DNA of 64,000 bases from Gammaproteobacteria bacterium (GTDB lineage Bacteria; Pseudomonadota; Gammaproteobacteria; Eutrophobiales; Eutrophobiaceae), in contig OZ220696.1 of the NCBI GenBank assembly GCA_965116495.1, forward strand, positions 1,920,001 to 1,984,000. The letters run 5' to 3'. Under the pieces are notes generated by a model that was given only the letters and a program-made list of their open reading frames with translations, was not told the origin of the DNA and did no database searches. How positions within the stretch are numbered: the stretch's first letter is position 1; every line of letters begins with the position of its first letter. Positions 5,004-46,786 of the stretch are shown piece after piece. A program made the translations under genes and the position numbers.

Positions 5004-5032
5004 GTTGTTAATATTCGTCGTTATCTCGGGAT

Positions 5033-25364: not shown

Positions 25365-25399
25365 AAATCTGAGATACAATTCAGCTGGACTAAATATTT

Positions 25400-25456
25400 G
25401 GGCCTGTAGCGGGGCCGCATGGCGGCAAGGTTAGAGCAGGGCAACCCGCCAGGGTT
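25400..25456 (+). pseudogene. Degenerate copy of the tRNA-Ile 5' half interrupted by small palindromes
   Basis: GGGCCTGTAGC (25400-25410) and GGTTAGAGCAG (25429-25439) are identical to the tRNA 5' exon. GCCGC-ATG-GCGGC lies between them and AACCC-GCCA-GGGTT follows. Confidence 0.6.
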
Positions 25457-25498: not shown

Positions 25499-25821
25499 GG
25501 GCCTGTAGCTCAGTTGGTTAGAGCAGTGGACTCATCAAAAATGGTGCGTTCATATCGAAAGATATGAAATGAACGGGATGAATTCAGGGAAACCTTAACC
25601 CGCCTGCCCACCAGGACAGGAGGAATGGCAACCCTGAGCCAAGCCGGGGGTACACCCCCGGAAGGTGCAGAGACTACCTGGGAACTGAAGTGTTCTTAAT
25701 ATCAGGCTAGAGCGTCCCGTACCCTAACATTTGGTTGAGGGTAGTGAGATAGTCCGCTCCTTTTAGAAATAAAAGGATAAAGTGAATCCATTGGTCGTAG
25801 GTTCGAGTCCTACCGGGCCCA
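25499..25821 (+). tRNA. tRNA-Ile2 (anticodon CAT), split by a group I intron; exons 25499-25535 and 25785-25821
   Basis: Joined exons fold into a cloverleaf: acceptor GGGCCTG/CGGGCCC, D arm GCTC/GAGC, anticodon arm GTGGA-CTCATAA-TCCAT, T arm GTAGG-TTCGAGT-CCTAC. Ile2 rather than Met is inferred from the usual position downstream of rpoD. The 3' end reads ACCG, so CCA is not fully encoded. Confidence 0.92.
25536..25784 (+). ncRNA. Group I self-splicing intron (IC3-like), 249 nt, no ORF
   Basis: P1 CAT/CA-AAAA-TG-GTG with a U.G splice-site wobble; P2 TTCATATC-GAAA-GATATGAA; P3 ACGGGATG/CGTCCCGT; P AATTCAGGGAAA; Q AACCCTGAGC; R GTGCAGAGACTA; S GAGATAGTCC; P9 TCCTTTTA-GAAA-TAAAAGGA; terminal G at 25784. 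Confidence 0.93.
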
Positions 25822-25923
25822 CCGGATAACGTTGTTATGCCTTCGCCCTACAAGTCCTGGACCAGGCGAAAGCCCAGGTAAGCGTCCCTCATTCCTGCGA
25901 CGGGTTGTTATCCGGAACCGTTC

Positions 25924-28263
25924 TCACACAACTGACACCGGTTCCGGCCTGGCCATGCGGTAGCCGACCGCGCGCACGTTCTGGATGTAGACCGGCAGGG
26001 CCGGGTCATCACCGAGCTTTCGGCGCAGTTGCTTGACAAAGGTACGGACCCGGTCCTGGTCGCCCGATTCAGGACCGTTCCATAGTTGGCGGATCAGCGA
26101 GTCGTAACTGACTACGCGTCCCGCGTTCACCGAGAGGATGTGCAGCAGCTCGTATTCGGTAGCGGTCAGATCTACCGGGCGGGCGGCCATGGTCACCCGC
26201 CGCTGCTCGTACTGGATGGCGAGGTCGCCGAGTACGAAGGGTTCCAGTTCGGTGCGCCTGCGCAGGGCAGCACGGACCCTCGCCGTCAGTTCCGTCGCCG
26301 AGAAGGGCTTGACGATATAGTCGACAGCGCCCTGTTCCAGCGCCTTGGCGATTGTCTCGTCCCGGCCATAGGCAGAGATGAAGATGACTGGAGTGTCGGC
26401 GATCTCCGAGGTACTTTGCATGATCTCGATGCCGTCGGCGCCGGGGAGGATCAGGTCAAGCAAGACCAGGTGGGGCTTCTGCGCCTGAATGATCCGGGGC
26501 AACTCGTTGTAGTCACCGGTCACAATCGGGGAGTAGCCGGCCCGATCCAGTGCGTCGCGAACGAAGCGGAGTATCTGCGGGTCGTCATCCAGCACCAGGA
26601 TGGGCGGGCGCTCGCTTCCCTGCTGGGAGGGGCGGTATTGATCACGAACGCCGCCGGCCTCTTCGGCTACCGGAATCGTGAAAGTGATTTGTGTCCCCCG
26701 GCCCGGCCCGTCGCTGTGCGCCTGGATGCGGCCTCCGTGGGCCTCCACCAGCCCCTTGCAGATGGCCAGCCCCAGACCGCTCCCGCGCCTGTCATCGTCG
26801 CTGAGGATCGTGTACTTGCGGAACAGGCGCGGGAGTTGCTCCGACGGTATCCCTTCACCCTCATCTGTGACCGTGACTGCCACGTGCAGGCCCTCGCGTA
26901 ACCCGGCGACCCGGATAGGAGAGGTACCGAGAGAGAACCTGGAGGCATTGGAAAAGAGGTTGCTCAGCACCTGTACGATGCGCCCCCTGTCGGCGAGCAC
27001 ACGGGGCAGGTCCTGCGGAAGGTCGATCAGGATCGTGTGCTTGCTGCCGCCGCTCAGGAAAGCATTCCTTGCCTGGTCCACCAGTGCGGCCAACTCGACA
27101 GGCGCTGGTGAGACGGACAGTGTGCCCGCGTCGATGCGGCCCGCGTCCAGGAGGTCGCTGATCAGGCCGCGCATGTGATCGGCCTGCTCATCGATGATGC
27201 GAAAGAACTGGTTCACCTCGCCCGGGTCCAGCGCAGAAGAGGCATCCAGCAAGGTGGTGGTCGAGCCCTTGATGGCAGCGAGCGGCGTGCGTAACTCGTG
27301 GCTGACCATGCCCAGGAACTCCGCCCGCAACCTGTCCAGTTCCTCCAGTTGCGCCAGGTCCTGCATGGTGACCACCACCGAGTCGACTTCGCCCTGTGCG
27401 GAACGGATGGGCGTGACGTTGAGCAAGGTGGTGACGCTCCTGCCGTCAGGAACCGATAGCACGACTTCCTCGGCGCGCATGGTCTCGGCTGTCGTTAATG
27501 TTTGTACGCCCGGATACTCGCTCAACGATACCTCGCGCCCATCGGTGAGCCGGCACGTGATCACCTCAATCAGTTCCTCCATGGACTTGCCCGGCATGCG
27601 CAGACCTTCGCCAATCCGGTTGGCCTCCCGGTTGAACGATACCGGCATGCCGGTCCTGGCGTCGAACACTACCACGCCCACCGGCGAGGTCTCCACCAGG
27701 GCCTCGAGGTCGGCCCGCGCCCGCTGCTCGTCGCGGTGCGTGCGGGCATTGGCGATGGCCGTCGCCGCCTGTGACGCGAACAACACCAGCACCTCTTCGT
27801 CCTGGTCCGTGAACGCCTGCCCGCTTTCCTTACCGGCGAGAAAGAAGTTGCCGACATGCATGTCGCGACGACAGATCTGCGTGCCCAGGAAGGTCTCGGA
27901 CAGAATCAGGTCCTCCGAGTAGCCGAGCGAACGGATATAAGTGGACAGGTCTGCCAGCCTCACGACTCCCGACACATCGCGCAAGTGTTCAATGAGCCGC
28001 GGGGTATCGGGGTTTTGCTCGAATTTTTGGTGCTCTTCGCCGGTGAAGCCGGAACTCACGAAGTCCTGGATTTCCCCGCTTTCTCCATAGGTGGTGATGA
28101 TGCCGTAGCCGGCACCGGTCAGGGCGCGGGCGCTGTCCACCACCTCCTGCAGGACGGTGTCAACGTCAAGGCTCGCGCTGATACGCAGGATCGCCGCACT
28201 CAACTGCGAGAGCCGCTCCTGCAGCGCCTCGAGATCCCGCGTATTTTCTTTGCGATCAACCAT
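25924..28263 (-). CDS. Soluble hybrid regulator: GAF-PAS-HisKA-HATPase-receiver-OmpR-type winged helix
   Basis: GAF (FTDQDEEVLVLFASQAA), PAS, H-box SHELRTPL, G2 box GSGLGL, receiver (LDDD, LLDL, KPF), C-terminal LTATEYELL...NVRAVGY; no transmembrane helix. Confidence 0.9.
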   Translation of the reverse strand: MVDRKENTRDLEALQERLSQLSAAILRISASLDVDTVLQEVVDSARALTGAGYGIITTYGESGEIQDFVSSGFTGEEHQKFEQNPDTPRLIEHLRDVSGVVRLADLSTYIRSLGYSEDLILSETFLGTQICRRDMHVGNFFLAGKESGQAFTDQDEEVLVLFASQAATAIANARTHRDEQRARADLEALVETSPVGVVVFDARTGMPVSFNREANRIGEGLRMPGKSMEELIEVITCRLTDGREVSLSEYPGVQTLTTAETMRAEEVVLSVPDGRSVTTLLNVTPIRSAQGEVDSVVVTMQDLAQLEELDRLRAEFLGMVSHELRTPLAAIKGSTTTLLDASSALDPGEVNQFFRIIDEQADHMRGLISDLLDAGRIDAGTLSVSPAPVELAALVDQARNAFLSGGSKHTILIDLPQDLPRVLADRGRIVQVLSNLFSNASRFSLGTSPIRVAGLREGLHVAVTVTDEGEGIPSEQLPRLFRKYTILSDDDRRGSGLGLAICKGLVEAHGGRIQAHSDGPGRGTQITFTIPVAEEAGGVRDQYRPSQQGSERPPILVLDDDPQILRFVRDALDRAGYSPIVTGDYNELPRIIQAQKPHLVLLDLILPGADGIEIMQSTSEIADTPVIFISAYGRDETIAKALEQGAVDYIVKPFSATELTARVRAALRRRTELEPFVLGDLAIQYEQRRVTMAARPVDLTATEYELLHILSVNAGRVVSYDSLIRQLWNGPESGDQDRVRTFVKQLRRKLGDDPALPVYIQNVRAVGYRMARPEPVSVV

Positions 28264-28469
28264 TTACCCGCCCCCGCCCCTTATTGTGAGGATTTATTCC
28301 ACGCAATCCCCGAAATACTCACAATTAAACGCATTAAGGGCACGATAATCACACGATTGCTATGTTAGAGTCAATCGCACGCTATTACAGATCCGTATAC
28401 GATAAGCCACAACCTGGGGAGGTCACACTTGAAACCAACACTACAGGCGCAGTCGCACCCATTGCCTGA

Positions 28470-29609
28470 ATGACTTCAGAATCAGGCACATCCGCCGGCT
28501 TATCGGAGCCCCCCGTTCTGGTCACCGGCTCTGCCGGGCACGTAGGCGCCAACCTCGTGCGCAGGCTGCTCGACGACGGCATCCGGGTACGGGTGTTGCT
28601 GAGACACGAGGACAACAACGAGGCATTGGAAGGACTCGAAGTCGAACGCACGTTTGCTGACATCCGGGATCTGGATGCCACCCGGCGCGCACTGGAAGGC
28701 TGCCAGGGCGTTTATCACGTAGCAGCCAAGATCTCAACCATCGAAGGCAACCACGCCCATCGCCGCGAAGTATTCGAGTGCAATGTCCTCGGTACCCGCA
28801 ACGTGCTGCAGGCTGCGCGGGAGGCGGAGGCCGGCCGGGTGGTGGTGACGGGATCATTCAGCGCGGTCGGTTATGACCTGGATGACCCGTCGGCGCCCAG
28901 TGACGAGACCATGCAGTTCTACCCCATGGAACGCACGATGCCCTACGAGCGCAGCAAGACACTGGTCGAGCATGAATGCTGGCGCGCCGCGGCAATGGGG
29001 CAGGATGTCATTGTCGCCACCTGTTGTGCCGTAATCGGGAGCGCCGATTTTTTCCCCTCGCGCCTGGGCAGGACCTTGTGCGACTACACCAACGGCAAGC
29101 TCCGTGCTTACGTGGATGGCGGTTTCGAGTTCGTCGCGGCGCGGGACATCGTCGAAGGACACCTGTTGTGCATGCGCCATGGACGCCCGGGCGAAAAGTA
29201 CATCTTCAGCAGCGAGTACAAAACCATTTCCGAGATCCTGGACCTGTACGAGGAGGTCTCGGGCATCCCGCGACCGCGCAGGCGGATACCGATCCCGATG
29301 ATGCTCGTCTTCTCGGAGGTGGCGAGCTTTTACCTGAGCCGGTTTCACCCGGGTTTCAACCAGCGTTTCACCCCTGGCGCCATCCGCCTGTTGAAAAAGT
29401 GCCGCCACGCCAACATCGACAAGGCGAAACGGGATCTGGGCTACCAGCCCACCAGTATCCGCGCCGCGGTGCACGAGGCCTATGCGTTCCACTACCAGCG
29501 CAACGCGATCAGGAACCCGCGCGCGAAACGCCCGTACGTTGACGCCGTGAGTCAGCCGGAAACTCTCAATCCGGGCCAGGGTATCCAGGTATCTACCGAA
29601 GGGGCTTGA
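28470..29609 (+). CDS. 3beta-hydroxysteroid dehydrogenase/decarboxylase-like extended SDR (SdmB-like)
   Basis: TGSAGHVG, YHVAA and YERSK. The sterol function is inferred from cluster context. Confidence 0.72.
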   Translation: MTSESGTSAGLSEPPVLVTGSAGHVGANLVRRLLDDGIRVRVLLRHEDNNEALEGLEVERTFADIRDLDATRRALEGCQGVYHVAAKISTIEGNHAHRREVFECNVLGTRNVLQAAREAEAGRVVVTGSFSAVGYDLDDPSAPSDETMQFYPMERTMPYERSKTLVEHECWRAAAMGQDVIVATCCAVIGSADFFPSRLGRTLCDYTNGKLRAYVDGGFEFVAARDIVEGHLLCMRHGRPGEKYIFSSEYKTISEILDLYEEVSGIPRPRRRIPIPMMLVFSEVASFYLSRFHPGFNQRFTPGAIRLLKKCRHANIDKAKRDLGYQPTSIRAAVHEAYAFHYQRNAIRNPRAKRPYVDAVSQPETLNPGQGIQVSTEGA

Positions 29610-29610
29610 T

Positions 29611-30696
29611 ATGAACCCGGCATCATGTGCGCCACCCGGCTTCGATGAAGCCCGCACCCTGCGCCAGCAGGCGCGGGCCGCGGGCATGGACCCGGATTAC
29701 TGGTACGCGGTCGAGGAAGTGCGCCGGGTTAAACCGGAGACCGTGGTCGAGATTGTTTTCTGGAAGCGTTCCATAGCCCTGTACCGGGCGAAAGACGGCT
29801 CGTTTCACGCTATGGATAACCGCTGTGCGCACCGGCAACTCAAACTTTCCCTGGGCGATGTGCAGGGTTGCCGGCTGGTGTGCGCCTACCATGGCTGGGA
29901 GTATGATGAAAACGGGGTCCCCTACAGCCGGTCCGGGCAGGGCCTCAGGAACCTCGCGCTGAGGACCTATCCCATACAGGTCCGCTACGGCCTGGTCTGG
30001 CTGTTTCCCGGGGATCCGGAGCGGGCGCGGCAGCGCGAAATCCCGGATATTCCTGAACTCGAAGGCCCATCCCGGTGGGCCTGTGTACCGCTGAGCTTCA
30101 CCTGGTCAGCGCACCACTCGATGGTGATCGACAACGTCAGCGACTTCACCCACGCCCACCTGCACCGCCGCTACCGCCCCTTTGACGATGCCACCCTCAC
30201 CCGCTGCGAGACCGACGGCGACAACGTGCATCTCGCCTACGACACGCAAGTCGGGCGCGGGCCCGTCTCCAGGCTGTTCGTCGACCACAACCGTATCGAC
30301 ACCAACCACATGGAGCTTTGCTACCAGTACCCCTACCAGTGGTCGAATACCGATGACGAGATAAAACACTGGCTGTTTGTGCTACCCATCGATGAACGCA
30401 CCACCCGGGCGTTTTTCCTGTTCTACTTCCGGTCGCTGAAAATCCCCGTTCTGCCGGTGAGGATCCCCCGGTTCGCCATGACCACGGTTATGAAGATTTC
30501 GAACCGCATGCTTATCGGCCCGTTACTCAGCCAGGACGGCGTTGCGGTCGAGGCGGAGCAGCAGGGGTACGAGAGGCACTGGGATGCCCCTCCCTTCGAG
30601 TTCAACCCGGTCGTCAAGGCTTTTCAGGATGTGACCGTGCGCAAGTGGCGGGAACACCTGGCGCGCACAAACGGGAGCGGTGATGCCGGGGCCTGA
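29611..30696 (+). CDS. Rieske oxygenase, putative sterol C-4 methyl oxidase (SdmA-like)
   Basis: CAHR...CAYH and DNVSDFTHAHLH; starts 1 bp after the SDR stop, inside the sterol cluster. Confidence 0.72.
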   Translation: MNPASCAPPGFDEARTLRQQARAAGMDPDYWYAVEEVRRVKPETVVEIVFWKRSIALYRAKDGSFHAMDNRCAHRQLKLSLGDVQGCRLVCAYHGWEYDENGVPYSRSGQGLRNLALRTYPIQVRYGLVWLFPGDPERARQREIPDIPELEGPSRWACVPLSFTWSAHHSMVIDNVSDFTHAHLHRRYRPFDDATLTRCETDGDNVHLAYDTQVGRGPVSRLFVDHNRIDTNHMELCYQYPYQWSNTDDEIKHWLFVLPIDERTTRAFFLFYFRSLKIPVLPVRIPRFAMTTVMKISNRMLIGPLLSQDGVAVEAEQQGYERHWDAPPFEFNPVVKAFQDVTVRKWREHLARTNGSGDAGA

Positions 30697-31783
30697 GCCG
30701 CACTTTCTGTTGTCCGCGCTGTCCGGCGCCGCCCTGCTCAAGGCGGCGGCTATGCTGCTGGTGTTTACCGGCGGGTTGTTCCTGGGTTCCATGCTGCTGC
30801 CCGGACGCCGGATTGCCGGGACGGACCTGGAGGGAACACCACACGAATACAGGCTCAACGGCCTCGCCCTGTTCCTGGCAACCGTGATTGCGGCAGGTCT
30901 CGTCCAGGTCTCCGGCTGGTTCTCACTTTCCACGTTGTATACCCACTTTGCCGCCTTGTTCGTGGCGGCCAACGTACTTGCATTTGCGCTTGCCGCCTGG
31001 CTGTATTACCGGGCCGCCCTGACCCGGGACTCAGCGCCGGGAATCCGGCCGAGCTTCTTCTATGGCGTGGAGTTCAATCCAACCGTGCTCGGGGTGGATT
31101 TGAAGCTTTTCAGCTACCGCCCGTCCCTCATCGGCCTGGCGCTGTTCAACGCATCGTTCGCCGTAGTGCAATACGAGACCTACGGCGGGCTGACCCTGGC
31201 AATGGCGCTGTACCAGGTCTTCACCTTCTGCTACGTGCTCAACTACTTCCAGTTCGAATACGGCATGACCCACACCTGGGACATGGTCAGCGAGCGCTTC
31301 GGCTGGATGCTGATCTGGGGGGACTACGTGCTGGTGCCGTTTTTCTATTGTCTCGCCGGCTGGTGGCTGGTCCACGCACAGCAACCGCTGTCTCTAATCG
31401 CCACCGCGGCGATCGTCATGTTGTTCATCATTGGCTTCTGGCTGTTCCGCGGCGCCAACGAGCAAAAACACCGCTTCAAGCGCAATCCCGGCGTGTCGAT
31501 CTGGGGACAACCCGCCCGGTCGCTGGACGGGCGCCTGCTGGTCTCCGGATTCTGGGGGATCGGACGGCATCTCAACTATACCGGTGAGATCTGCATCTAC
31601 CTCGCGTTCGCCCTCACCACGGGGTTCGGATCCTGGGTGCCTTACCTGTTGCCCGCGTGGCTGGCGCTCCTGTTGTGGCATCGCTCAAAACGTGACGATC
31701 GCCGCTGCCGCGCCAAGTACGGCGAACTGTGGGGACGCTACACGCAGCGGGTGCGGTATTCAATGCTGCCGTATGTCTACTAA
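30680..31783 (+). CDS. ERG4/ERG24 family sterol reductase (probable delta14 reductase)
   Basis: FYGVEFNP, ERFGWMLIWGD, LLVSGFWGIGRHLNYTGE and RDDRRCRAKYG; multi-transmembrane protein. Confidence 0.9.
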   Translation: MMPGPEPHFLLSALSGAALLKAAAMLLVFTGGLFLGSMLLPGRRIAGTDLEGTPHEYRLNGLALFLATVIAAGLVQVSGWFSLSTLYTHFAALFVAANVLAFALAAWLYYRAALTRDSAPGIRPSFFYGVEFNPTVLGVDLKLFSYRPSLIGLALFNASFAVVQYETYGGLTLAMALYQVFTFCYVLNYFQFEYGMTHTWDMVSERFGWMLIWGDYVLVPFFYCLAGWWLVHAQQPLSLIATAAIVMLFIIGFWLFRGANEQKHRFKRNPGVSIWGQPARSLDGRLLVSGFWGIGRHLNYTGEICIYLAFALTTGFGSWVPYLLPAWLALLLWHRSKRDDRRCRAKYGELWGRYTQRVRYSMLPYVY

Positions 31784-31789
31784 CCCGCA

Positions 31790-33199
31790 ATGTCACAGCA
31801 ATCCGACAGCGTAGCCAGCCTGCATTCGGTGCAACCCCCGCCGCGGGCGGCAACAGCCGTTCCCTTGATCGGGGGCGGATGGCCGTTAATCGGCCACCTG
31901 CCGGGCTTCCTGAAGGATCCGGTCTCGATGTTGAGCCGCGGCTGGCGCGAACAGGGTGAACTCGTCCGGTTCCGTATCGGTCCCCGTAATTTTGTCCTGT
32001 TCACCGGACCCGAGGCCCACGACTTTTTCTTCAGGGCGCCTGAGGATCAGCTGAACGCCAAAGCCGTCTACCAGTTTACGGTACCCATCTTCGGACGCGG
32101 CGTGGCATACGACGTCGCCCCCGCGATCATGGCCGAGCAGCTTGAGTTCCTGTACCCGGCGCTGCGCGAATCCGCGATGAACAGGTTCGCCCGCATCATG
32201 TTCGATGAGACGGACCGCTTCGCCGACTCTCTTGGCGAGGAAGGAGAAATCGACCTGCCGACGGCGATGAACGAACTCACCGTCAACATCGCCAGCCGCT
32301 GCCTCATCGGGGAGGAAGTCCGGGAGCAGGTGGACTCGGGTTTTGCCGATGCTTACCACAACCTGCAAAACGGCATCAACACCCTGGGATTTTTTCTCCC
32401 CAGGCTTCCTGTCGCAGCGCATCGAAGCCGCGACCGGGCCCGGCAAAAAGTGGCCGAGATTTTCAGCCGGGTCATGGCGGAACGCCGGCGCGCCGGGGCC
32501 CGTCCCGACGATTTCATGCAGACGCTCATGGACGCCCGTTACAAGGATGGCCGCGCCTTGAGCGACGACGAGATTACCGGGATCCTGCTGACGGTGTTGT
32601 TCGCGGGCCAGCACACGAGCGCGGTGCTGTCAACCTGGACCGGCCTGGAACTCGCGAGAGAATCGTCATACCTGGCGCTGATAAGGGACGAAATGCAGGA
32701 CGTCTACCGCGAGGAAGGAACCATGGGCCTGGCGAGCCTGAAGCGGCAGGTGGCGCTGGAACACGCCGTGCGTGAGAACGAACGGCTGCACCCGCCGCTG
32801 ATCATGCTGATTCGCAAGGTGCTCAAAGACGTGGAATACCGGGGATATACCATCCCTGCAGGCACCCTGGCACTGGTATCGCCGGCGGTCTCGCACCGGC
32901 TGCCGCACTTATTTCACGACCCGGACCGGTTCTATCCGCAGCGTTTTGCCGCGCCCGCCAGCGAAGACAAACAACACCACTACGCACTGATCGGTTTCGG
33001 CGGCGGTAAACACCGGTGCATGGGTAAGAATTTCGCCATCATGCAACTGAAAGCGATCTGGTCTGTGCTGCTCGACCGCTTCGATGTTCATCTCGACACG
33101 GCATTTCCTGCGCCGAATTACGGCAGCTGGGTGACCGGACCGCAGGAGCCTTGCCGGCTCCGCTACCGGCGCCGCACACAGGCAAGCGTGTTCCGGTGA
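31790..33199 (+). CDS. cyp51: Cytochrome P450 CYP51 (sterol 14alpha-demethylase)
   Basis: YQFTVPIFGRGVAYD (CYP51 B'/C region), LFAGQHTS I-helix, ExxR and heme motif FGGGKHRCMG. Confidence 0.9.
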   Translation: MSQQSDSVASLHSVQPPPRAATAVPLIGGGWPLIGHLPGFLKDPVSMLSRGWREQGELVRFRIGPRNFVLFTGPEAHDFFFRAPEDQLNAKAVYQFTVPIFGRGVAYDVAPAIMAEQLEFLYPALRESAMNRFARIMFDETDRFADSLGEEGEIDLPTAMNELTVNIASRCLIGEEVREQVDSGFADAYHNLQNGINTLGFFLPRLPVAAHRSRDRARQKVAEIFSRVMAERRRAGARPDDFMQTLMDARYKDGRALSDDEITGILLTVLFAGQHTSAVLSTWTGLELARESSYLALIRDEMQDVYREEGTMGLASLKRQVALEHAVRENERLHPPLIMLIRKVLKDVEYRGYTIPAGTLALVSPAVSHRLPHLFHDPDRFYPQRFAAPASEDKQHHYALIGFGGGKHRCMGKNFAIMQLKAIWSVLLDRFDVHLDTAFPAPNYGSWVTGPQEPCRLRYRRRTQASVFR

Positions 33200-36100
33200 A
33201 CGGCGTCGCTCCACAACGCTGTGACGCAGCCATCGTCGGCGCGGGTCCGGTGGGCAGCCTGTGCGCGCTTGCTCACGCACGCAAAGGCGCCCGGGTGGCT
33301 CTGCTCGAGGCAAACCCCCAGGCATCCCTGCGACTGGCGGGCGAATGGCTGCACCCGCCTGCCGTGCGGATGCTGCGCGCTGTGGGTGTCGAGCTCAATG
33401 CGCAGCACGACTACCCCACCGGTAAAGGGTTCGCGGTGTTCCCTGAAGACGGTTCGGAGCCGATAATGTTCCCTTATACCGACGGGTCGCGCGGGCTGGC
33501 ATGCGAGCACAACCTGCTCGTCTCAAGTCTGCGTGAAGCTGTCAGCAACGAGCCGAATATCGACTTTATGCTGCACGCACGGGTACGTGCGGTCGAAGAC
33601 GGACGCATCACTTTTACCCGTAACGGCACCACTGAAACCGTGACTGCCACGCGTATTGTAGGCGCCGACGGGCAGGCCTCGATCGTGCGTAAATCGCTGG
33701 GTTTATCGACCAACCCGATGATCTGCTCGCAGACGGTGGGGGTCATCGTAAAAGGGGTGAGCTTGCCGCTGGAGGGTTATGGACACGTGGTGCTTGGCGG
33801 GCCGGGTCCAATCCTCATATACCGCCTGGGAGAGGATTGCGTCCGCATTATCGCCGATGTCCCGCTGGACCGCACGACCCCCCGGGACCGAATCGGTTTT
33901 TTGTCGGACTCATATTCCGGCCTGTTGCCGGAAACCCTCAGGCCTGCGTTTGTCGAAGCGCTGCGCGCTGGAGACTTCCACGTCGCGGCCAACAAGCTGA
34001 GACCGCATGTCACGTACGGCAGCCCGCACCGGGTGCTTATCGGCGATGCGGCCGGACACTACCATCCCATGACGGCGATGGGGATGACCTTCGGTTTCGG
34101 CGATGCGCTTACGCTGGCCGGCAACGGGGATTTTCACGATTTCACCACCAGGCGCTTCCGGGCAACCCGCGCGCCGGCGTTCCTCGCCATGGGGTTGTAT
34201 GAGTGCTTTGCCGATTACCGGGCCGAGGCGGTGGCGGTCAGGCATACGATCTACCGGAGCGCCCGGGCAAGTTCCGGGTACCGCGACCAGACAATCCGTT
34301 TACTCGCCTGTGAAGACACATCGATAACCCGCCTGGGTCTGGCATTTTTCACGACGGTTGCACGCACGGTTGCCGGGCAGATACCGCGCTCCTGCGACCT
34401 GCTCGCCTGGCGCCGGTTCCGCGACATCATGCGTGCGCTGGCGGTTCGTTGCGGGTGGCTCCTGCGCAGCGTCCGGCGGCTGGCCAAGGCGAGAAACGCG
34501 GGCGTGGAAATGGACGGGCGAGTATGGGACAGCCTGGCCGGTATTTTTCTCATCTCCATGCCGGCGAAAGTCCGCGCCCCCAGGCTGGTCCGCCCGAGGG
34601 AGATTGCGCCACCCGATGCGGGTCCGGCATTGCTCAGCGCGACCGAACGCCTGATAAATCTTCAGGATGAGGACGGCGGCTGGGAAGGCGAGATGGTCTG
34701 GTGTCCCATGCTCACCGCGCAATACGTACTGCTGCACCACGTTATCGGGCGGCCGCTCGAACCCGGCCGGCGCAGGAGTGTACTGCGTTTCTTCGAACGG
34801 ACCCGCCTGGCAGGAGGCTCATGGGGTTTACACGATCACTCGCCCCCCCACCTGTTTGTCACCACCCTGGTTTATGTCGCGGCGCGATTAGTCGGTGCCG
34901 AGCGGGATGATCCGTTAATCGAGCCGGCCCGGCGCTTCCTGCAGACAGAGGGGGTTACCGGTATCCCGAGCTGGGGGAAGTTCTGGCTGGCGCTGCTCAA
35001 TCTCTACGACTGGCGCGGGGTACACGCGGTGCTGCCGGAACTCTGGAGCCTGCCGCGCCGGGTCCCGTTGCATCCCTCGAACTGGTACTGCCATACCCGG
35101 CTCATTTACATGGCGATGGCGTCGATTTACCCGCACCGGTACACGGCGCCGGTCACGCCCCTGGTCTCCTCGTTACGGGAAGAGTTATATCCCCAGGGGT
35201 TTGCCAACATCGATTTTTCCGCCACACGCCATGAATTGCGGGACGCCGACCTGTATGCGCGACCCAGCGTATGGCTCCGGGCCGGCTACGAGTTTGCGCG
35301 TCTGTTCGAACGGATTCACAGCAAACGCCTGCGCTCCCGCTGCACGGAAGAGATAATCCGGCTCATCAAATGGGAACTGCAGACAACCAGCCACACGAGT
35401 ATCTCTCCGGTCAGCGGCCTGCTCAATATCCTTTCCCTGTGGCTGCGTGATCCGGACGACGCCGACGCCGGACAGGCGCTCTCGCAACTGGATGGCTGGC
35501 TCTGGGAAGACGAGGAACAGGGAGCCCGGGTCACCGGCGCGAGAAGCGCCTCCTGGGATACCGGCTTCGCTTTGCAGGCGCTGGCGGCAGTGCCCGGGCC
35601 CGGCGAAGTGGAAAACGCTTCCCTCCGGAATGGAGCCAATTTCCTGTACGAACAACAAATCGATACTAGCTTCGAAGGGTTTCGCGAGGCTTATCGTATT
35701 GACCCCAAAGGCGGCTGGTGTTTTGCCGGGGGCTGGCACGGCTGGCCGGTTACCGACTGTACCGCGGAAGCGGTGCTGGGAATTATTGCGGCCAAGGGCG
35801 AGGCCGCGGATGCAACCGTGCTCGGCGATGCGGTCCGCTTCATGTTGCGCGGCCAGAACCGCGACGGCGGTTTCGGCAGCTACGAGGCGCGCCGCACCGT
35901 GACAGGTCTCGAGTGGTTGAACCCGGCCGAGATGTTCGGCGACTCGATGACCGAACATTCCTATGTGGAGTGCACCGCGTCCTGTCTTGCGGCGTTCGCC
36001 GCCTGCAGGGAGCACTTCCCGCAAACCACGGACCAGGCGCTGACGAGCGCCATTTCACGGGGTGACGCCTGGCTGCGCCGGACCCAGGCGGTCGACGGTT

Positions 36101-36603
36101 CCTGGCGCGGTGTATGGGGCGTTCAGTTTATCTACGGCACCTTTTTCGGGATCAGGGGTCTGCTTGCCGCCGGGGCCCGGCCCGGTGATCCGGCGCTGCG
36201 CCTGGCCTGCCAGTGGCTGCTGGAGCGCCAGCGCAGGGACGGGGGTTGGGGTGAGCACCACAGCGGCTGCACGACCGGGCGCTACGTCGCACACGAGGAA
36301 AGCCAGGTCATCCAGACCGCGTGGGCATTGATTGCACTGCTGGAGGCAAGCGATCCGAACTGGAGCGCGATTTCACGGGGCGCCCGCTATCTGCTCAACG
36401 CCCGGAACGCGGACGGGTCCTGGCCAAAACAGGACATGGCCGGGGTCTTCTTCCGCACGGCGCTCCTGGATTACGTCCTGTACCGGCAGTATTTTCCCCT
36501 GCACGCACTCGGTCTCTATGAGCAGCGGCGGCTGGCCCGGGTGGATTTGACAGCCCCCGTTCCCTCCGCCGATGTGAAACTGGCTGAAGCAGCAGGTTCG
36601 TAG
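33196..36603 (+). CDS. Squalene epoxidase-oxidosqualene cyclase fusion protein
   Basis: N-terminal flavin monooxygenase (GAGPVG, RLAGEWLHP, VGADG, GDAAGHYHPMTAMGMT) and C-terminal type II triterpene cyclase (QW repeats, PSWGKFWL, YCHTR, DCTAE at 35755-35769). Start taken at GTG 33196, a GTGA overlap with the cyp51 stop. Confidence 0.9.
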   Translation: MNGVAPQRCDAAIVGAGPVGSLCALAHARKGARVALLEANPQASLRLAGEWLHPPAVRMLRAVGVELNAQHDYPTGKGFAVFPEDGSEPIMFPYTDGSRGLACEHNLLVSSLREAVSNEPNIDFMLHARVRAVEDGRITFTRNGTTETVTATRIVGADGQASIVRKSLGLSTNPMICSQTVGVIVKGVSLPLEGYGHVVLGGPGPILIYRLGEDCVRIIADVPLDRTTPRDRIGFLSDSYSGLLPETLRPAFVEALRAGDFHVAANKLRPHVTYGSPHRVLIGDAAGHYHPMTAMGMTFGFGDALTLAGNGDFHDFTTRRFRATRAPAFLAMGLYECFADYRAEAVAVRHTIYRSARASSGYRDQTIRLLACEDTSITRLGLAFFTTVARTVAGQIPRSCDLLAWRRFRDIMRALAVRCGWLLRSVRRLAKARNAGVEMDGRVWDSLAGIFLISMPAKVRAPRLVRPREIAPPDAGPALLSATERLINLQDEDGGWEGEMVWCPMLTAQYVLLHHVIGRPLEPGRRRSVLRFFERTRLAGGSWGLHDHSPPHLFVTTLVYVAARLVGAERDDPLIEPARRFLQTEGVTGIPSWGKFWLALLNLYDWRGVHAVLPELWSLPRRVPLHPSNWYCHTRLIYMAMASIYPHRYTAPVTPLVSSLREELYPQGFANIDFSATRHELRDADLYARPSVWLRAGYEFARLFERIHSKRLRSRCTEEIIRLIKWELQTTSHTSISPVSGLLNILSLWLRDPDDADAGQALSQLDGWLWEDEEQGARVTGARSASWDTGFALQALAAVPGPGEVENASLRNGANFLYEQQIDTSFEGFREAYRIDPKGGWCFAGGWHGWPVTDCTAEAVLGIIAAKGEAADATVLGDAVRFMLRGQNRDGGFGSYEARRTVTGLEWLNPAEMFGDSMTEHSYVECTASCLAAFAACREHFPQTTDQALTSAISRGDAWLRRTQAVDGSWRGVWGVQFIYGTFFGIRGLLAAGARPGDPALRLACQWLLERQRRDGGWGEHHSGCTTGRYVAHEESQVIQTAWALIALLEASDPNWSAISRGARYLLNARNADGSWPKQDMAGVFFRTALLDYVLYRQYFPLHALGLYEQRRLARVDLTAPVPSADVKLAEAAGS

Positions 36604-36680
36604 AAGCTCAATCCAGGGAGCGGCATGAAGAGAAATAATGAGATGATCTATAATAGATTACCGCTAGTGAGAGTACATTC

Positions 36681-37706
36681 ATGGCAACGCGTTTGATTAA
36701 GAATCTGGCGAGCACGGTTAACTGGCAGCATGTGGCGAAGCGCTCCAGGGGATATGTCGAGCGGTTCTCACCCACGGAACGGAAAAAACTGAAAGACGGG
36801 ACATTCGACTACATGGGGTTGACCCGGGACTACTACGACCTGGCAACCGCATTCTACGAGTACGGATGGGGGGAGTCTTTTCACTTTGCCCCGCTTTACC
36901 CGGACAAACCGTTCAAGGAGTCGATCCGGCTCCACGAGATGTACCTGGCAGACGTGCTGGACATAGAGCCGGGTATGCGGGTGCTGGATATCGGTTGCGG
37001 TATCGGCGGGCCCCTGGTCGCCATCGCCAGGCACACAAACGCCGCTATCGTCGGGCTTAACAACAACCATTCCCAGGTTGAAAAAGCGCGCGCCAGAACT
37101 GCGAATGCGAACCTGGATCCGCCGGCCGAATTTATCGTCGGTGATTTCATGCACATCGATGCGCCGGATGCGAGCTTTGACAGGGCTTATAATATCGAGG
37201 CCATGGCGCACGCCACGAGCAAGGCCGCGGCCTATGCCGAGGCCTACCGGATTCTCAAGCCCGGAGGGCTGTTCGCTTCCTACGAATGGTGTATGACTTC
37301 AAGGTTCGACCCCGCCAATGCGGACCATCAACATATAAAGCGCGAGATCATGATCGGCAATGCACTGCCCGATATCAGCACGTTTGAGGACGTTGACCGC
37401 GCGCTGGAGGAAGCCGGCTTTGAAATCCTGGTGAACGATGACTTGGCGGAGACCATCGATACCGGTGTGCCCTGGCACAAGGCGCTGGGAGCGCAGAAGT
37501 TCACGCCCCTGGATTTCCTGAAGACGCCGGTCGGGCAGCAGGTCACGGCGAAGATGCTGTGGCTGTTTGAACGCATCGGGCTGGCGCCCAGGGGTTCGCA
37601 CCAGGTCGCAACCATTCTCAACCGGGGCGCGGACGGCCTGTCGGCAGGCGGCAAACTGGGTGTCTTCACGCCCATGTATTTTACGGTGGGGCGTAAGGCG
37701 GGCTGA
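36681..37706 (+). CDS. Sterol C-24 methyltransferase (ERG6/SMT family)
   Basis: YYDLATAFYEYGWGESFHF (SMT region I), LDIGCGIGGP, IEAMAHA, LKPGG...YEW and C-terminal FTPMY. Confidence 0.9.
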   Translation: MATRLIKNLASTVNWQHVAKRSRGYVERFSPTERKKLKDGTFDYMGLTRDYYDLATAFYEYGWGESFHFAPLYPDKPFKESIRLHEMYLADVLDIEPGMRVLDIGCGIGGPLVAIARHTNAAIVGLNNNHSQVEKARARTANANLDPPAEFIVGDFMHIDAPDASFDRAYNIEAMAHATSKAAAYAEAYRILKPGGLFASYEWCMTSRFDPANADHQHIKREIMIGNALPDISTFEDVDRALEEAGFEILVNDDLAETIDTGVPWHKALGAQKFTPLDFLKTPVGQQVTAKMLWLFERIGLAPRGSHQVATILNRGADGLSAGGKLGVFTPMYFTVGRKAG

Positions 37707-37709
37707 AAG

Positions 37710-37830
37710 CTATCCCGCATTTACCAACACATCACCACCTGGCGAACGAATAAGACGTTCCAGGGTAGCGGCCTTGGTACCGTGGCGCGGATCAAGCATA
37801 TGGCGCACCTCGCTCTCTTTCAGATCCAGG
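37710..37830 (-). pseudogene. C-terminal remnant of a HicB-like antitoxin
   Basis: Manual translation LDLKESEVRHMLDPRHGTKAATLERLIRSPGGDVLVNAG* resembles the EVRRxLDPxHxTK tail of HicB-HTH proteins; no N-terminal half is present. Confidence 0.5.
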
Positions 37831-38013
37831 GAAAGGTACTTAAACGACGAATTTACCACCATAGCTATAGAGATCTTCAGTTTAGCCGATAAATCTTCAT
37901 CCTAGTCATATTCTGAATATAATACGACATTCTAAACTAGCACTGACGGACGCATAATCCATTTAAGAACTATCACTCAAAACTCCTCTTATCACAGATA
38001 AAAGCTTCTGAAT

Positions 38014-39234
38014 ATGTTTATTTATACCCTGGCAACCATGGACACAAAGGGAGACGAGATTTGTTTCGTCGCTGACAAAATCAGTCAGACCGGGATAAAG
38101 GTTAAAATTGTTGATGTTGGAACGGCAAACAACCCGCAAAGACCCCCCGATATCGGTAAAGAGACAATTGCAGCATGTCATGCCAAGGGAGCACGACATG
38201 TACTGGATCAGAATGATCGGGGAATTGCCGTAAAAGCAATGGGCGAAGCCCTGGAAAACTTTTTGCTGCAAGAACATAACGAGAACAGAATTGCAGGCGT
38301 CATTGGTATCGGCGGCTCTGGTGGAACCTCATTGATATCGAGAGGTATGAGGGCCTTACCAATCGGTCTTCCCAAACTACTGGTATCGACTGTTGCCAGC
38401 GGAAACACCCAACCTTATATAGATTGTAGTGATATTACGATGATGTATTCGGTGGTAGATATTGCCGGCTTAAATAACGTATCCGAAGTCATCCTGAATA
38501 ACGCAGCTCAAGCGCTCAGCGGCATGGTAATTAACTATTCACGGCCCGAGACAGAAAAGAGGGCCATTGGAATGACCATGTTCGGTGTGACGACCCCTTG
38601 TGTGGACGCAGTGCGAAAAAAACTGGAGTCCCAGGGAAAGGACTGTCTTGTTTTTCATGCAACGGGTACTGGTGGGCGAGCTATGGAAAGTCTGGTAAAC
38701 AGCAGCTACATCGATCAGGTTTTGGATATTACAACAACAGAGGTAGCTGATGAAATTGTAGGTGGCGTATTTCCCTGTGGAGAGCATCGCTTCAATAGCG
38801 TTGTGCAAAACCGTATACCTTGCGTAATGAGTCTGGGAGCATTGGACATGGTGAATTTTGGTGGCCTCGAAACCGTACCTGAAAAATTCAAAAACCGTAG
38901 TTTGTATGTACACAATCCGGAAGTAACCTTAATGCGCACAAACGTGGAGGAATGTATAGCTATAGCAAAATGGATGGCTGCCAGGATAAATGAAAGCAAG
39001 GCGCGATTTACACTTGTCATCCCTGAAGGTGGCGTATCAATGCTTGATGCCCCAGGGCAACCTTTCTTCGATACTGAAGCTGACGAGGCCCTGTTTAATA
39101 CTCTGGAAGAGACTGTTGAGCAAAATAAAGAACGAAAAATACTGCGCTCATCTCATAACATTAATGATCCGGAATTTGCTGAAGTGCTACTAGATGCTTT
39201 AGCTGATGTGTTGGACATGAACGGTACTCCATAA
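38014..39234 (+). CDS. Tm-1-like ATP-binding domain protein (UPF0261)
   Basis: TMDTKGDE, GGSGGT, LPKLLVST, TMFGVTT, FHATGTGG and GALDMVNF. Confidence 0.9.
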   Translation: MFIYTLATMDTKGDEICFVADKISQTGIKVKIVDVGTANNPQRPPDIGKETIAACHAKGARHVLDQNDRGIAVKAMGEALENFLLQEHNENRIAGVIGIGGSGGTSLISRGMRALPIGLPKLLVSTVASGNTQPYIDCSDITMMYSVVDIAGLNNVSEVILNNAAQALSGMVINYSRPETEKRAIGMTMFGVTTPCVDAVRKKLESQGKDCLVFHATGTGGRAMESLVNSSYIDQVLDITTTEVADEIVGGVFPCGEHRFNSVVQNRIPCVMSLGALDMVNFGGLETVPEKFKNRSLYVHNPEVTLMRTNVEECIAIAKWMAARINESKARFTLVIPEGGVSMLDAPGQPFFDTEADEALFNTLEETVEQNKERKILRSSHNINDPEFAEVLLDALADVLDMNGTP

Positions 39235-39251
39235 CTTTGCTGTGTAAATTC

Positions 39252-39275
39252 GGGGACAGAATTAATTCTGTCCCC
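39252..39275. repeat. Perfect 24-bp palindrome (REP-like)
   Basis: GGGGACAGAATTAATTCTGTCCCC; same family as 12943-12966. Confidence 0.7.
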
Positions 39276-39296
39276 AGCAAGCTCAAATGATAGCGA

Positions 39297-40124
39297 ATGA
39301 ATAGAGAACAAGTTCTAAAAAAGCTGAGGAATAAAGTTAAGGCGGGTGAGTTGATCATTGGTGGTGGCGCAGGAACCGGCTTATCAGCCAAGTGTGAAGA
39401 AGCCGGGGGAATAGACCTGATCGTAATCTACAATTCCGGGCGCTACCGTATGGCCGGACGAGGTTCGCTATCTGGTTTATTGGCTTACGGAAATGCCAAT
39501 GAAATAGTCAAAGAAATGGCCAGTGAAGTTCTGACTGTCGTAAAAGCAGTTCCGGTACTGGCCGGAGTGAATGGCACTGACCCATTCATGATGTTAAAGC
39601 CTTTCCTGCAAGAATTGAAAGATATGGGATTTGCTGGAATACAGAATTTTCCGACTGTTGGTTTGATTGATGGCGTCTTCAGAATGAACCTGGAAGAAAC
39701 CGGAATGGGCTATGGCAAGGAAGTTGAGTGTATCGCGGCTGCCCGCGAGCTCGACCTGCTGACGACTCCATATGTATTTGATATTGACGAAGCCAGGCTG
39801 ATGACCGACGCGGGCGCAGACATAGTTGTTGCCCACATGGGCCTGACAACAAGCGGTAGCATTGGTGCTGCGACATCGAAAACGTTGCCTCAATCGGTCG
39901 CATTAATTCAGCAGATAACAGATACCTGCAAAGGGTTAAATGACGATGTACTGGTGCTATGTCATGGCGGGCCAATTGCCGAACCCCGGGATATGCAATT
40001 TGTCATAGACAATGTAAAAGACCTGGATGGATTCTATGGCGCGAGTTCAATGGAACGCCTACCTGTTGAACGGGCACTTACGGAGCAGGTTGCTGAATTT
40101 TGTAAAATTAAGAGGGCAAAATAG
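39297..40124 (+). CDS. Phosphoenolpyruvate hydrolase-like TIM-barrel protein
   Basis: [37 protein letters not shown] and GASSMERLP. Confidence 0.9.
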
Positions 40125-40126
40125 AA

Positions 40127-40930
40127 ATGTTAGGTAATAGAGTTGTGTTAATCACCGGCGCCGGCGGGGGAATTGGGCGCGGCATCGCACAGGCGGTAAT
40201 GAAAACAGGCGCCGCAGTGATCGTTACTGATCTGGATGCAGATTCGGCTAATGCGACCGCTAAAATACTGGCGGACGATTATGACGCTGAAGATGTGATG
40301 GCCGTAGCGATGGATATTACCGACAGGGATGCTGTGGCTGACACAATCGAAGCCGGCGTAGCGCGCTTCGGAAAAATTGACGGGCTCGTCAACAATGCGG
40401 CTGTATTAGCGGACCCAGGACCTCTACTGGATTCAGATCCGGCTAAACGAAAAAAGGAAGTCGAAGTAAATCTCGGCGGAACTATTATTTGCTCACAGGC
40501 TTTCGTGCGCCAGGTAATCAAACAAAAAACAGGCGGCAATATCGTTAACCTGGCTTCGGAAGGCGGGTTCAGGGCGCACGTAATGATGGCAAATTACAGT
40601 GCTACCAAAGCGGGGGTCATTAATCTGACACAGGCACAGTCCGCGGAGTGGTGCAGGTATGGTATCAACGTAAATGCCATCTGTCCCGGCGGCATACATA
40701 CCGATATGTTGCAGGCTGCAGCTGAGGCAAAGTCGACAAATTCCGATATCTCCGCAACCGCTTTGCGCGAGACCTGGATTTCACCGCAATTGGGTAGAAG
40801 GATGGAAGCTATTGAAGTCGGCTATGTTGCTGCATTTTTGTTATCCGAAGAAGCCGTCCTGATTCGGGGACAGGCTATTCGAGTATCAGGTGGCTTGGAG
40901 CACGAAAATTTGCAAGACTATGAAATGTAA
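40127..40930 (+). CDS. Short-chain dehydrogenase/reductase
   Basis: TGAGGGIG, NNAA, YSATK and NAICPG. Confidence 0.9.
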   Translation: MLGNRVVLITGAGGGIGRGIAQAVMKTGAAVIVTDLDADSANATAKILADDYDAEDVMAVAMDITDRDAVADTIEAGVARFGKIDGLVNNAAVLADPGPLLDSDPAKRKKEVEVNLGGTIICSQAFVRQVIKQKTGGNIVNLASEGGFRAHVMMANYSATKAGVINLTQAQSAEWCRYGINVNAICPGGIHTDMLQAAAEAKSTNSDISATALRETWISPQLGRRMEAIEVGYVAAFLLSEEAVLIRGQAIRVSGGLEHENLQDYEM

Positions 40931-43288: not shown

Positions 43289-43348
43289 GACGGCGACCAC
43301 CCGGACGGGAACCACAGTCTCGAAGTATTTTCCCTTCTCCAGGGCGTC

Positions 43349-44335: not shown

Positions 44336-44358
44336 AGTGCGCCGGAGCAGGTCAGGGT

Positions 44359-44763: not shown

Positions 44764-44781
44764 ATTCGTTCTATTGTCTGT

Positions 44782-45972: not shown

Positions 45973-45996
45973 TCTCCGGACAGTGTCGGTTATCGC

Positions 45997-46734: not shown

Positions 46735-46786
46735 CTTCTACTCTCCATTGGTTACAAAAAAACTACGGCGCACACCGCTGGAGTCG

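Follow-up and report, generated by a model that had tools for sequence, protein, structure and literature searches.

Several sterol gene clusters have been described from bacterial symbionts. The msbA-F locus of the gammaproteobacterial symbiont of Melophlus sarasinorum encodes an NAD(P) oxidoreductase, a Rieske oxygenase, a sterol reductase, a lanosterol demethylase, a bifunctional epoxidase/cyclase and a SAM sterol methyltransferase, and was tied to sarasinosides in its paper (Mohanty et al. 2020, PMC7074536). In Ircinia symbionts, core clusters (CSGs) were reported from 115 of 537 MAGs, spread over 11 classes that include the Gammaproteobacteria, together with evidence that they were transferred horizontally; their ERG24-CYP51-LSS core of 5910 +/- 74 bp has a DFR-like reductase and a hypothetical gene upstream and an SMT or a squalene synthase downstream (Kelly et al. 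2022, PMC9531527). The clusters found in an Aplysina aerophoba metagenome and in a Chromatiales MAG from Theonella swinhoei have consecutive gene identifiers for sdmB-sdmA-erg24-erg11-erg1/erg7 (one gene)-erg6, and methylation by the cluster-terminal SMT of the Aplysina cluster was proven in vitro (Brown et al. 2023, PMC10070321). SdmAB pairs of a Rieske protein and an SDR also lie beside sterol genes in Methylococcus, Calothrix NIES-4105 and Enhygromyxa salina (Lee et al. 2023, PMC10202945), as they do at the present locus.

The window, that is, the whole 64,000-nucleotide stretch of DNA that was analysed, contains a cluster of this kind. An ORF scan of positions 28470-37706 found six intact genes, all on the plus strand, in the order SDR - Rieske - ERG24 - CYP51 - epoxidase/cyclase - SMT that matches the msb/CSG type. 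They encode an SdmB-like SDR (28470..29609, 379 aa, MsbA equivalent), an SdmA-like Rieske oxygenase (29611..30696, 361 aa, MsbB equivalent), an ERG24-type Delta14-sterol reductase (30680..31783, 367 aa, MsbC equivalent), a CYP51 sterol 14-alpha-demethylase without a ferredoxin fusion (31790..33199, 469 aa, MsbD equivalent), a fusion of squalene epoxidase and putatively lanosterol-type oxidosqualene cyclase (33196..36603, 1135 aa, MsbE equivalent) and a sterol C-24 methyltransferase (SMT; 36681..37706, 341 aa). The junctions are, in order, a 1-nt gap, a 17-nt overlap, a 6-nt gap, a 4-nt overlap and a 77-nt gap before the SMT. The frame of the fusion gene is open from 33151 and would give 1150 aa if read from the first TTG; its start is likely a GTG at 33196 that shares nucleotides with the stop codon of CYP51. 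The initial annotation had described six co-oriented genes of these families, the first five abutting or overlapping; ORF coordinates and junctions bear out the layout, and domain, model and structure matches agree with the family names. A promoter and terminator scan of 28200-38100 gave one promoter-like and five terminator-like sites, both below the shuffled-sequence means (3.0 and 8.7, respectively).

Comparison with the msb locus showed the same six functions from A to F, a fusion enzyme with the diagnostic valine, a gammaproteobacterial host and a squalene synthase elsewhere in the genome; MsbF is likened to the window SMT by its description (PMC7074536). The ERG24-CYP51-LSS core at 30680-36603 measures 5924 bp, inside the CSG range of 5293-6059 bp. 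The SMT is co-oriented here, whereas in the text on the Ircinia CSGs the 3' gene (SMT or FDFT1) runs on the other strand, and ERG2, found in several of those CSGs, is absent here (PMC9531527). Gene order is the same as in the Aplysina and Chromatiales clusters; the Chromatiales MAG also has its squalene synthase elsewhere and a DHCR24 homologue, which is two identifiers from the SMT there and 55 kb off here (PMC10070321). The novelty that the initial annotation saw in architecture and host is thus not upheld, since the same six-gene order with the fusion was published from gammaproteobacterial symbionts in 2020 and 2023; what is new here is limited to a probable exchange of the SMT and a probable recent transfer between species. 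The published distribution, our sole indication of habitat, suggests that the host lives in sponges. Overall, we consider it likely from the sequence that this intact msb/CSG-type cluster would convert squalene to a lanosterol-derived, 14-demethylated and C-4-demethylated Delta8 sterol whose side chain undergoes one or two C-24 methylations and not a third.

Both domains of the fusion protein lie within one open reading frame. Its epoxidase half matches the squalene epoxidase domain (8e-23) and human squalene monooxygenase (1e-24), and its cyclase half matches oxidosqualene cyclase (2e-219) and is closer to human lanosterol synthase (6e-133) than to SHC (2e-52). The cyclase half passed the squalene/oxidosqualene cyclase subfamily model (500 against a cut-off of 323), scored 729.8 bits with the OSC model TIGR03463, under the curated cut-off of 851, and scored 263.8 bits with the SHC model, under the cut-off of 431. 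It contains the DCTAE protonation motif and not DXDD, with Val and His at human positions 453 and 449; position 381 is ambiguous in the alignment to the human enzyme owing to a one-residue gap. A hopanoid/SHC identity was ruled out by the OSC and SHC scores (730 versus 264 bits) and the DCTAE motif, and a real SHC (760 bits) and HpnA (503 bits) are encoded elsewhere in the genome. The enzymes group with sterol-synthesis and not with hopanoid proteins. Val453 went with lanosterol in every bacterial OSC tested (PMC4919349). On this residue the product is likely lanosterol, and the cycloartenol route was ruled out. Among 22 other genomes of the genus, the fusion is full-length in 9 and split across two contig ends in 1; the passages of literature searched contained no assay of such a fusion.

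CYP51 has a p450 domain (1e-57), only CYP51s as top PDB matches (best 4e-101), and an intact I-helix AGQHTS motif at 272 and heme-cysteine motif at 403. The ERG24-type reductase matches ERG4_ERG24 (PF01222, 9e-72), has the Delta(14)-sterol reductase 4QUV as its closest solved structure (1e-69) and is the sole PF01222 member found in the genome. A Delta8(14) product via 8,14-Bsr was judged unlikely, given the canonical ERG24 and a CYP51 with no fused or adjacent ferredoxin.

The SdmB-like protein scored 295.5 bits (7e-88) with the NCBIfam SdmB model NF052578, above its 228 bits with the HpnA model (cut-off 368), and the SdmA-like protein scored 390 bits (8e-117) with NF052579; both stay under a cut-off of 600 bits that defines methanotroph SdmA/SdmB equivalogs. 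The former carries a Rossmann glycine motif at 19 and YxxxK at 159, and the latter a Rieske Cys/His motif at 72 and a mononuclear-iron motif at 175. By best match, motifs and synteny, they are predicted to work like SdmB (C-4 decarboxylase/3-keto reductase) and SdmA (C-4 methyl oxidase). Of 22 other genus genomes, 10 contain the SdmA-like gene, and these are the ones that also have the cyclase. PDB searches with SdmA, SdmB and the SMT matched only distant superfamily members, and a tblastn search of the genome for an SdmC-like second reductase gave no match except HpnA. SdmAB homologues remove one or both C-4 methyls depending on lineage, and none without SdmC in E. salina, where SdmAB alone was inactive at C-4 (PMC10202945). 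In the published same-order clusters, SdmB is closer to that of Calothrix (52-54%) than of Methylococcus (43-45%) (PMC10070321).

The sub-threshold SdmA and SdmB scores would also fit a cluster that makes a norlanostane aglycone for a sarasinoside-type glycoside, with the SDR and Rieske proteins acting in side-chain oxidation and the methyltransferase in O-methylation, as proposed for msbA, B and F of the same-order locus (PMC7074536). We regard this as very unlikely, since the methyltransferase has a sterol-MT C-terminal domain and the residues of proven C-24 SMTs, SdmAB homologues of two further phyla work at C-4 (PMC10202945), and no glycosyltransferase was found among the scanned window ORFs.

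The SMT contains the Sterol_MT_C domain (PF08498, 1e-20) and keeps 25 of the 25 residues conserved in all functional SMTs, although a bioRxiv preprint found no in vitro activity for four SMTs in which every conserved residue is present. Numbered by the anchors of that preprint, with a one-residue offset needed at position 286, its Tyr59, Tyr61 and Asn227 correspond to yeast positions 81, 83 and 249. Propylation is reported to need Gly249: all four known propylators combine it with Phe at 81 and/or 83, a G249N mutant gave C28 and C29 but not C30 sterols, and none of eleven G249 substitutions tested yielded C30 sterols. The window SMT has neither Gly249 nor these Phe residues. The Aplysina terminal SMT, compared by residues, is a propylator of the Gly249 type (PMC10070321). 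With a propylating SMT in the same slot of a same-order cluster, and Gly at 249 in the 91% identical orthologue of the congeneric genome G022, one could suppose that the window SMT methylates three times and that the organism makes 24-isopropyl sterols, the precursors of the sponge biomarker. Against the Asn249, Tyr81 and Tyr83 found here we hold this to be extremely unlikely; an isopropyl product is probably not to be expected.

The SMT appears to differ in origin from the genes before it. It shares 45-49% identity with the usual cluster-terminal SMTs that abut the cyclase in G005, G008, G011 and G021, and in the SMT tree it falls in a long-branch clade apart from these, each clade with 100% SH-aLRT, and outside the 29 named eukaryotic rows. 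SMTs of the window type take the cluster-terminal slot in the present genome (G000), G016 and G022, whereas a different SMT holds it in 4 relatives; among its orthologues (75-87%), those of G002 and G020 are remote from the cluster, and G003 and G019, where they also occur, have no cyclase. DNA similarity to two free-standing copies (L018 and L019) begins at 36643-36649 and ends at the SMT end. The plus-strand leader at 36649..36680, which is common to free-standing copies and starts with a TATAAT hexamer, is possibly the gene's own promoter; a sigma-70 scan called no full promoter there. In the metagenome scan, 79 of the 80 loci kept had no matches to the reference proteins except the SMT, and one (L160) had the cluster. 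The SMT thus appears to be a separately acquired cassette, and an older SMT-ERG2 tail was likely replaced by an SMT of another clade; no paper on such a swap was found among the listings and passages searched. Because the clade also occurs off-cluster and in G003, a 98%-complete single-contig genome, its members may act on outside sterols.

On this view of the SMT, the five-gene core might by itself make an unalkylated Delta8 sterol (zymosterol or 4-methylzymosterol, or a 24-saturated form via a Delta24-reductase), with the SMT serving mainly on sterols of a eukaryotic host. The 77-nt gap and the conserved leader, the off-cluster and cyclase-less occurrences, and the fact that 4 of the 10 other genus genomes with the cluster lack any SMT behind the cyclase are in line with this. 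Yet the SMT is co-oriented, sits where relatives have another SMT and is kept in three genomes, and in the same cell it would meet Delta24 intermediates; bacterial SMTs take desmosterol in vitro (PMC10070321). We consider such independence rather improbable, and favour C-24 methylation of the cluster's own sterol.

Reading gene content, motifs, distribution and sequence identities together, we infer every enzymatic step as follows. Squalene would come from a squalene synthase-like enzyme, whose gene lies outside the sterol cluster adjoining hpnA/hpnN/hpnL and scored below its curated cut-off, as did SdmA, SdmB and the cyclase. The fusion protein would epoxidise it and cyclise the epoxide to lanosterol, CYP51 would take off the 14-methyl and ERG24 reduce Delta14, SdmA/SdmB would remove one or both C-4 methyls, and the SMT would add a C-24 methylene. 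The overall sterol pathway of the initial annotation is supported by the gene assignments; its sufficiency within one locus of about 9 kb is not, since the squalene synthase is elsewhere, no ferredoxin or ferredoxin reductase lies within the cluster, and a Delta24-reductase-like (DWF1/DHCR24-like) gene is 55 kb away. The genome is a single contig, 99.5% complete and 1.1% contaminated, so that absences from the pathway carry meaning. Profile searches gave no PF04622, PF05241 or PF04116 match (PF04622 matches occur in 9 of 22 other genus genomes), and neither a C-8 isomerase nor a C-5 desaturase nor a Delta7 reductase was found in the genome; the ring double bond therefore likely stays at Delta8. 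The ring product would be fecosterol- or 4-methylfecosterol-like, with a 24-methylene, methyl or ethylidene side chain.

The Delta24-reductase-like gene is paired with a desaturase with histidine boxes at C1:2010755-2013751, an adjacency seen in G000 and G022 only. The reductase may reduce the side chain to 24-methyl or act on the Delta24(25) bond in competition with the SMT, the desaturase could alter ring or side-chain unsaturation, and together they may lengthen the pathway. No copy of the desaturase was found in 400 other genomes of the class, nor in the 9 genomes behind L021-L029 in a search without a positive control; an Atlas search returned generic fatty-acid desaturase clusters only, and no paper on the pair was found among the listings and passages searched. 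It is conceivable though unlikely that the genome encodes, in dispersed genes, a complete route to a sterol with a regular ergostane skeleton, in which SdmAB take both C-4 methyls, an SMT of the separate clade methylates C-24 and a mobile desaturase/DWF1-DHCR24-like cassette finishes ring and side chain without ERG2/ERG3. If so, C28 steranes could have a bacterial de novo origin, the desaturase would represent a new family of sterol desaturases in bacteria, and the propylation rule would meet a natural test in the G000/G022 SMT pair, which is 91% identical but has Asn and Gly, respectively, at 249.

The site of the cluster is a variable island that also contains genes for transposase and integrase, and the cluster has a GC content of 59-64% (genome mean 54.7%) and a GC3 of 0.75-0.82, at least at the 90th percentile. 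These features would suit a chimeric assembly, or a cluster carried silently by a mobile island. Gene order is repeated, at 88-99% protein identity, in the independently assembled L016, L017 and L160, the last of which begins within CYP51. In run X1, the listed contigs without letter differences have a depth of 285-300 across rpoD, the neighbouring kinase gene, the cluster and the SMT; runs X1-X4 belong to one study, which may be the source of the assembly, and contigs from two further studies span the OSC-SMT junction (X5) and the one between CYP51 and the fusion (X6). None of the six frames is broken, and the catalytic motifs are intact as well. The checks of coverage, rpoD linkage and mis-assembly that the initial annotation had called for thus favour a sound locus; genome quality, repeated order, even depth, bridged junctions and the SMT tree ruled out chimerism or eukaryotic contamination, and we give a chimera or silent passenger next to no credence beside an intact cluster. 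At the fourfold-degenerate sites, the six cluster genes are 91-96% identical to those of G022, compared with 55-63% for tsaD, dnaG and rpoD, and the RpoD and cyclase trees conflict over G000. The cluster likely moved recently between two congeneric species (~82% identical) inside a tRNA-linked island.

C-24-alkylated steranes are used as eukaryote and sponge biomarkers. Brown et al. 2023 (PMC10070321) describe de novo synthesis of such sterols by bacteria as not yet confirmed for an isolate, a question that this locus leaves unchanged because the same cluster type is already known from many publications. The locus is valuable as material for tests: it lies in a 99.5%-complete single-contig genome, its SMT belongs to a clade that may not have been assayed yet and that includes a natural Asn/Gly249 pair, it gives direct evidence that such clusters pass between species and exchange their terminal genes, and it offers a desaturase and a flavoprotein as candidates for accessory enzymes.

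The left border of the island is a plus-strand tRNA gene at 25499..25823 with a group I intron (about 25536-25784; RF00028, 84.8 bits at 25526-25776). ARAGORN run without introns found no tRNA in the window and, with introns, a 76-nt tRNA named Gln, its splice placed differently from our manual reading, in which the exon ends and contig joints (25535-25785) give the anticodon CAT; no matching paper on the intron was found. Identity to G022 rises at this border from 77-83% to 94-96%. Between tRNA and cluster, a divergent hybrid histidine kinase/response regulator (25924..28263, minus strand; Pfam GAF-PAS-HisKA-HATPase-REC-Trans_reg_C) is 97% identical to the G022 protein and appears to be a co-transferred island gene, with no role in sterol synthesis indicated by the evidence here.

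All six genes between window positions 28470 and 37706 are intact, lie on the + strand and were placed correctly by the initial annotation; their junctions measure 1, -17, 6 and -4 nt among the first five genes, followed by 77 nt before the sterol C-24 methyltransferase (SMT) gene. By Pfam and NCBIfam they encode, in order, an SDR resembling SdmB, a Rieske oxygenase resembling SdmA, a reductase of the ERG4/ERG24 family, a P450, a squalene epoxidase-oxidosqualene cyclase fusion and a sterol methyltransferase. Among solved structures, the top matches were CYP51s for the P450 (4e-101) and a Delta14-sterol reductase for the reductase (1e-69). The N-terminal part of the fusion protein aligns with human squalene monooxygenase, and the match of the fusion to human lanosterol synthase (6e-133) far exceeds that to squalene-hopene cyclase (SHC; 2e-52). 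Catalytic motifs were all found in SdmA, SdmB, CYP51, the cyclase and the SMT.

An assembly chimera is unlikely. The window lies on a single 4.34-Mb contig (C1 of genome G000; 99.5% complete, 54.7% GC), and the cluster gene order recurs in three comparison loci (L016, L017, L160). Identical contigs listed in sequencing run X1 show an even depth of 285-300 over rpoD, the kinase gene, the cluster and the SMT, study P1 behind these figures being possibly the source of the assembly itself. Contigs that span the cyclase-SMT junction and the CYP51-fusion junction come from two further studies, P2 and P3.

Three papers bear on the novelty that had been placed in architecture, host and product. The same six functions are encoded by msbA-F in a gammaproteobacterial sponge symbiont (Mohanty et al. 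2020, PMC7074536), where, as in our genome, the epoxidase-cyclase fusion has its valine and squalene synthase is located elsewhere. An ERG24-CYP51-LSS (lanosterol synthase) core, flanked by DFR-like and hypothetical genes 5' and SMT or FDFT1 3', was described in 115 of 537 Ircinia MAGs (11 classes, Gammaproteobacteria among them); its mean length is 5910 bp versus 5924 bp in the window, and horizontal transfer of such clusters is also published there (Kelly et al. 2022, PMC9531527). Supplementary Data 1 of Brown et al. 2023 (PMC10070321) gives consecutive gene ids for sdmB, sdmA, erg24, erg11, erg1/erg7 and erg6 in one Aplysina metagenome contig and one Chromatiales MAG, and in vitro the SMT at the end of the Aplysina cluster was shown to propylate. 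Cluster architecture and host class are therefore already known; the initial interpretation is right in outline and overstated in novelty, and the cluster is an additional example of a published family with a modestly different tail.

Judged from sequence, the cluster probably allows the cell to make a C-24-methylated Delta8 sterol de novo, any single end structure being much less certain. Squalene would be supplied by the squalene synthase-like enzyme of the hopanoid locus, whose gene (TIGR01559, 125 bits, under the cut-off) lies beside hpnA, hpnN and hpnL at about 3.68-3.69 Mb of C1; a true SHC lies at about 4.17 Mb (both in L040/L041), and SHC-level matches occur in nearly all genus genomes. 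Hopanoids and sterols would therefore draw on one pool, and the organism likely makes both. From Val453, the fusion cyclase is predicted to form lanosterol, which CYP51 and ERG24 would convert to a Delta8 sterol. A Delta8(14) route requires 8,14-Bsr, which according to PMC13277303 accompanies ferredoxin-linked CYP51s, whereas the window CYP51 has no ferredoxin link. SdmA and SdmB would then remove one or possibly both C-4 methyls; in PMC10202945, SdmAB homologues remove one C-4 methyl, both, or none without SdmC. ERG4/ERG24 is single-copy in G000, and no gene for ERG2, EBP or a C-5 desaturase-family protein turned up in searches of this genome; the ERG2 search does give matches in 9 of the 22 other genus genomes. 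The SMT has 25/25 residues conserved in functional SMTs but carries Tyr81, Tyr83 and Asn249, from which C28 or C29 products and not C30 are predicted (bioRxiv 10.64898/2025.12.19.695621); counting against this prediction, four SMTs with all conserved residues proved inactive in that study. The 91%-identical orthologue in genome G022 (L044, C1:2328316-2329338) has Gly at 249 where the window has Asn. Separately, actinobacterial-type SMTs in loci L022, L024 and L027 have Phe81, Phe83 and Gly249 and are candidate propylators.

Of the 22 other genus genomes, 10 carry the cyclase, and these ten are also the ones with SdmA; searches of 2 genomes of the same family and 16 of the same class yielded no full-length cyclase fusion. 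Eight of the ten have ERG2 after the cyclase or the SMT, and in four (G005, G008, G011, G021) the SMT abutting the cyclase is just 45-49% identical to that of the window. G000, G016 and G022 are without ERG2 and have the window-type SMT instead, orthologues of which (75-87%) are found outside the cluster in G002 and G020 and also in cyclase-less G003 and G019, the G019 copy being partial. The two types formed separate clades with 100% support in a quick tree of 133 rows, with the window SMT on a long branch; the tree excludes loci L049 and L054-L059, which did not pass the motif filter, and 5 proteins longer than 400 aa. DNA likeness to the free-standing copies runs from a TATAAT hexamer ~35 nt upstream of the ATG to the stop. 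We infer that an SMT-ERG2 tail was replaced by an SMT cassette carrying its own leader.

Sampled 1-kb fragments of G022 (171 aligned, from 17 stretches of 20 kb each) had a median identity of 82.5% to G000, with 12% at least 93%, versus 94-98% for cluster fragments except two at 88-90%. At fourfold-degenerate sites, the six genes and the kinase are 91-96% identical versus 55-63% for tsaD, dnaG and rpoD, and identity jumps at an intron-containing tRNA just past rpoD. RpoD groups G000 with G001 and G019 (100/98), whereas the cyclase groups it with G016 and G022 (100/100). G001 and G019 have no cluster, and their rpoD is followed by DNA found ~52 kb further on in G000; in G014 and G015, which by RpoD are sisters of G016 and G022, the site holds other island genes and no sterol genes. 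With RpoD as the single marker and an unrooted tree, the simplest reading is transfer into the G000 lineage.

Further candidate genes lie elsewhere in G000. A 518-aa FAD protein (C1:2012195-2013751), whose named homologues (50-62% identity) are annotated as delta24-sterol reductase, is directly preceded by a histidine-box membrane desaturase-like gene (PF00487, 475-490 aa). The pair (L155:7756-10752; C1:2010755-2013751) is inserted between phoH and ybeY; of 23 genus genomes, G000 and G022 are the only two that have it. Nine of the best 40 reductase homologues lie on a contig exactly equal in size to that of one of 120 desaturase homologues, which hints indirectly at joint movement of the two genes. 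Plant DWF1 turns 24-methylene into 24-methyl; the reductase-like protein could do likewise or rival the SMT, and its neighbour is a candidate new sterol desaturase. Of 23 genus genomes, 14 encode a PF01593 flavin oxidoreductase (L156:8721-10100; C1:3730723-3732099 in G000), among them 10 of the 11 having the cyclase; its gene adjoins sdmB in several relatives and ERG2 in G018; it is therefore a likely, so far unstudied, sterol-pathway accessory. An RND efflux trio (OEP, MFP, AcrB) followed by a GPP34-P450 fusion (L154:8439-16587; C1:174438-182586) is a possible sterol export or modification module: the locus holds SMTs in relatives (L018, L019, L144-L146, L148, L149), borders the entire sterol cluster in L036 and L037, and an AcrB homologue follows a Chloroflexota SMT in L028. 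L018 and L019, two loci annotated as gammaproteobacterial, are colinear with another region of G000 at 75-83% DNA identity, in support of the class assignment. In an alphaproteobacterial MAG (L026), the order is sdmA-sdmB-SMT-cyclase, and the match to the fusion is confined to its cyclase half.

The tRNA at window 25499-25823, probably Ile2 with its anticodon read as CAT, is interrupted by a group I intron of 249 nt (RF00028, 84.8 bits) that resembles the Azoarcus tRNA-Ile intron. A literature search on the tRNA intron found no paper. Matching DNA sits behind rpoD in many genus genomes, and the tRNA 5' half has a partial copy at about 25398-25440. Right after the SMT, UPF0261/Tm-1-like, PEP-hydrolase-like and SDR genes form a low-GC block (38014-40930; 46-48%; GC3 about 0.43-0.46 in the first two) missing from L017 and L160. 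Genes for a PQQ dehydrogenase-cytochrome c, 2OG-Fe(II) oxygenase, RidA, Rieske oxygenase, SnoaL-CDGSH and TonB receptor (41297-49378) recur in G014 and G015, which are without sterol genes, at 85-99% protein identity to the window copies. The window also encodes a protein of 1627 aa containing about 41 stretches of RTX calcium-binding repeats (243-5126) and an M10 peptidase/FG-GAP/RTX protein (55420-57525).
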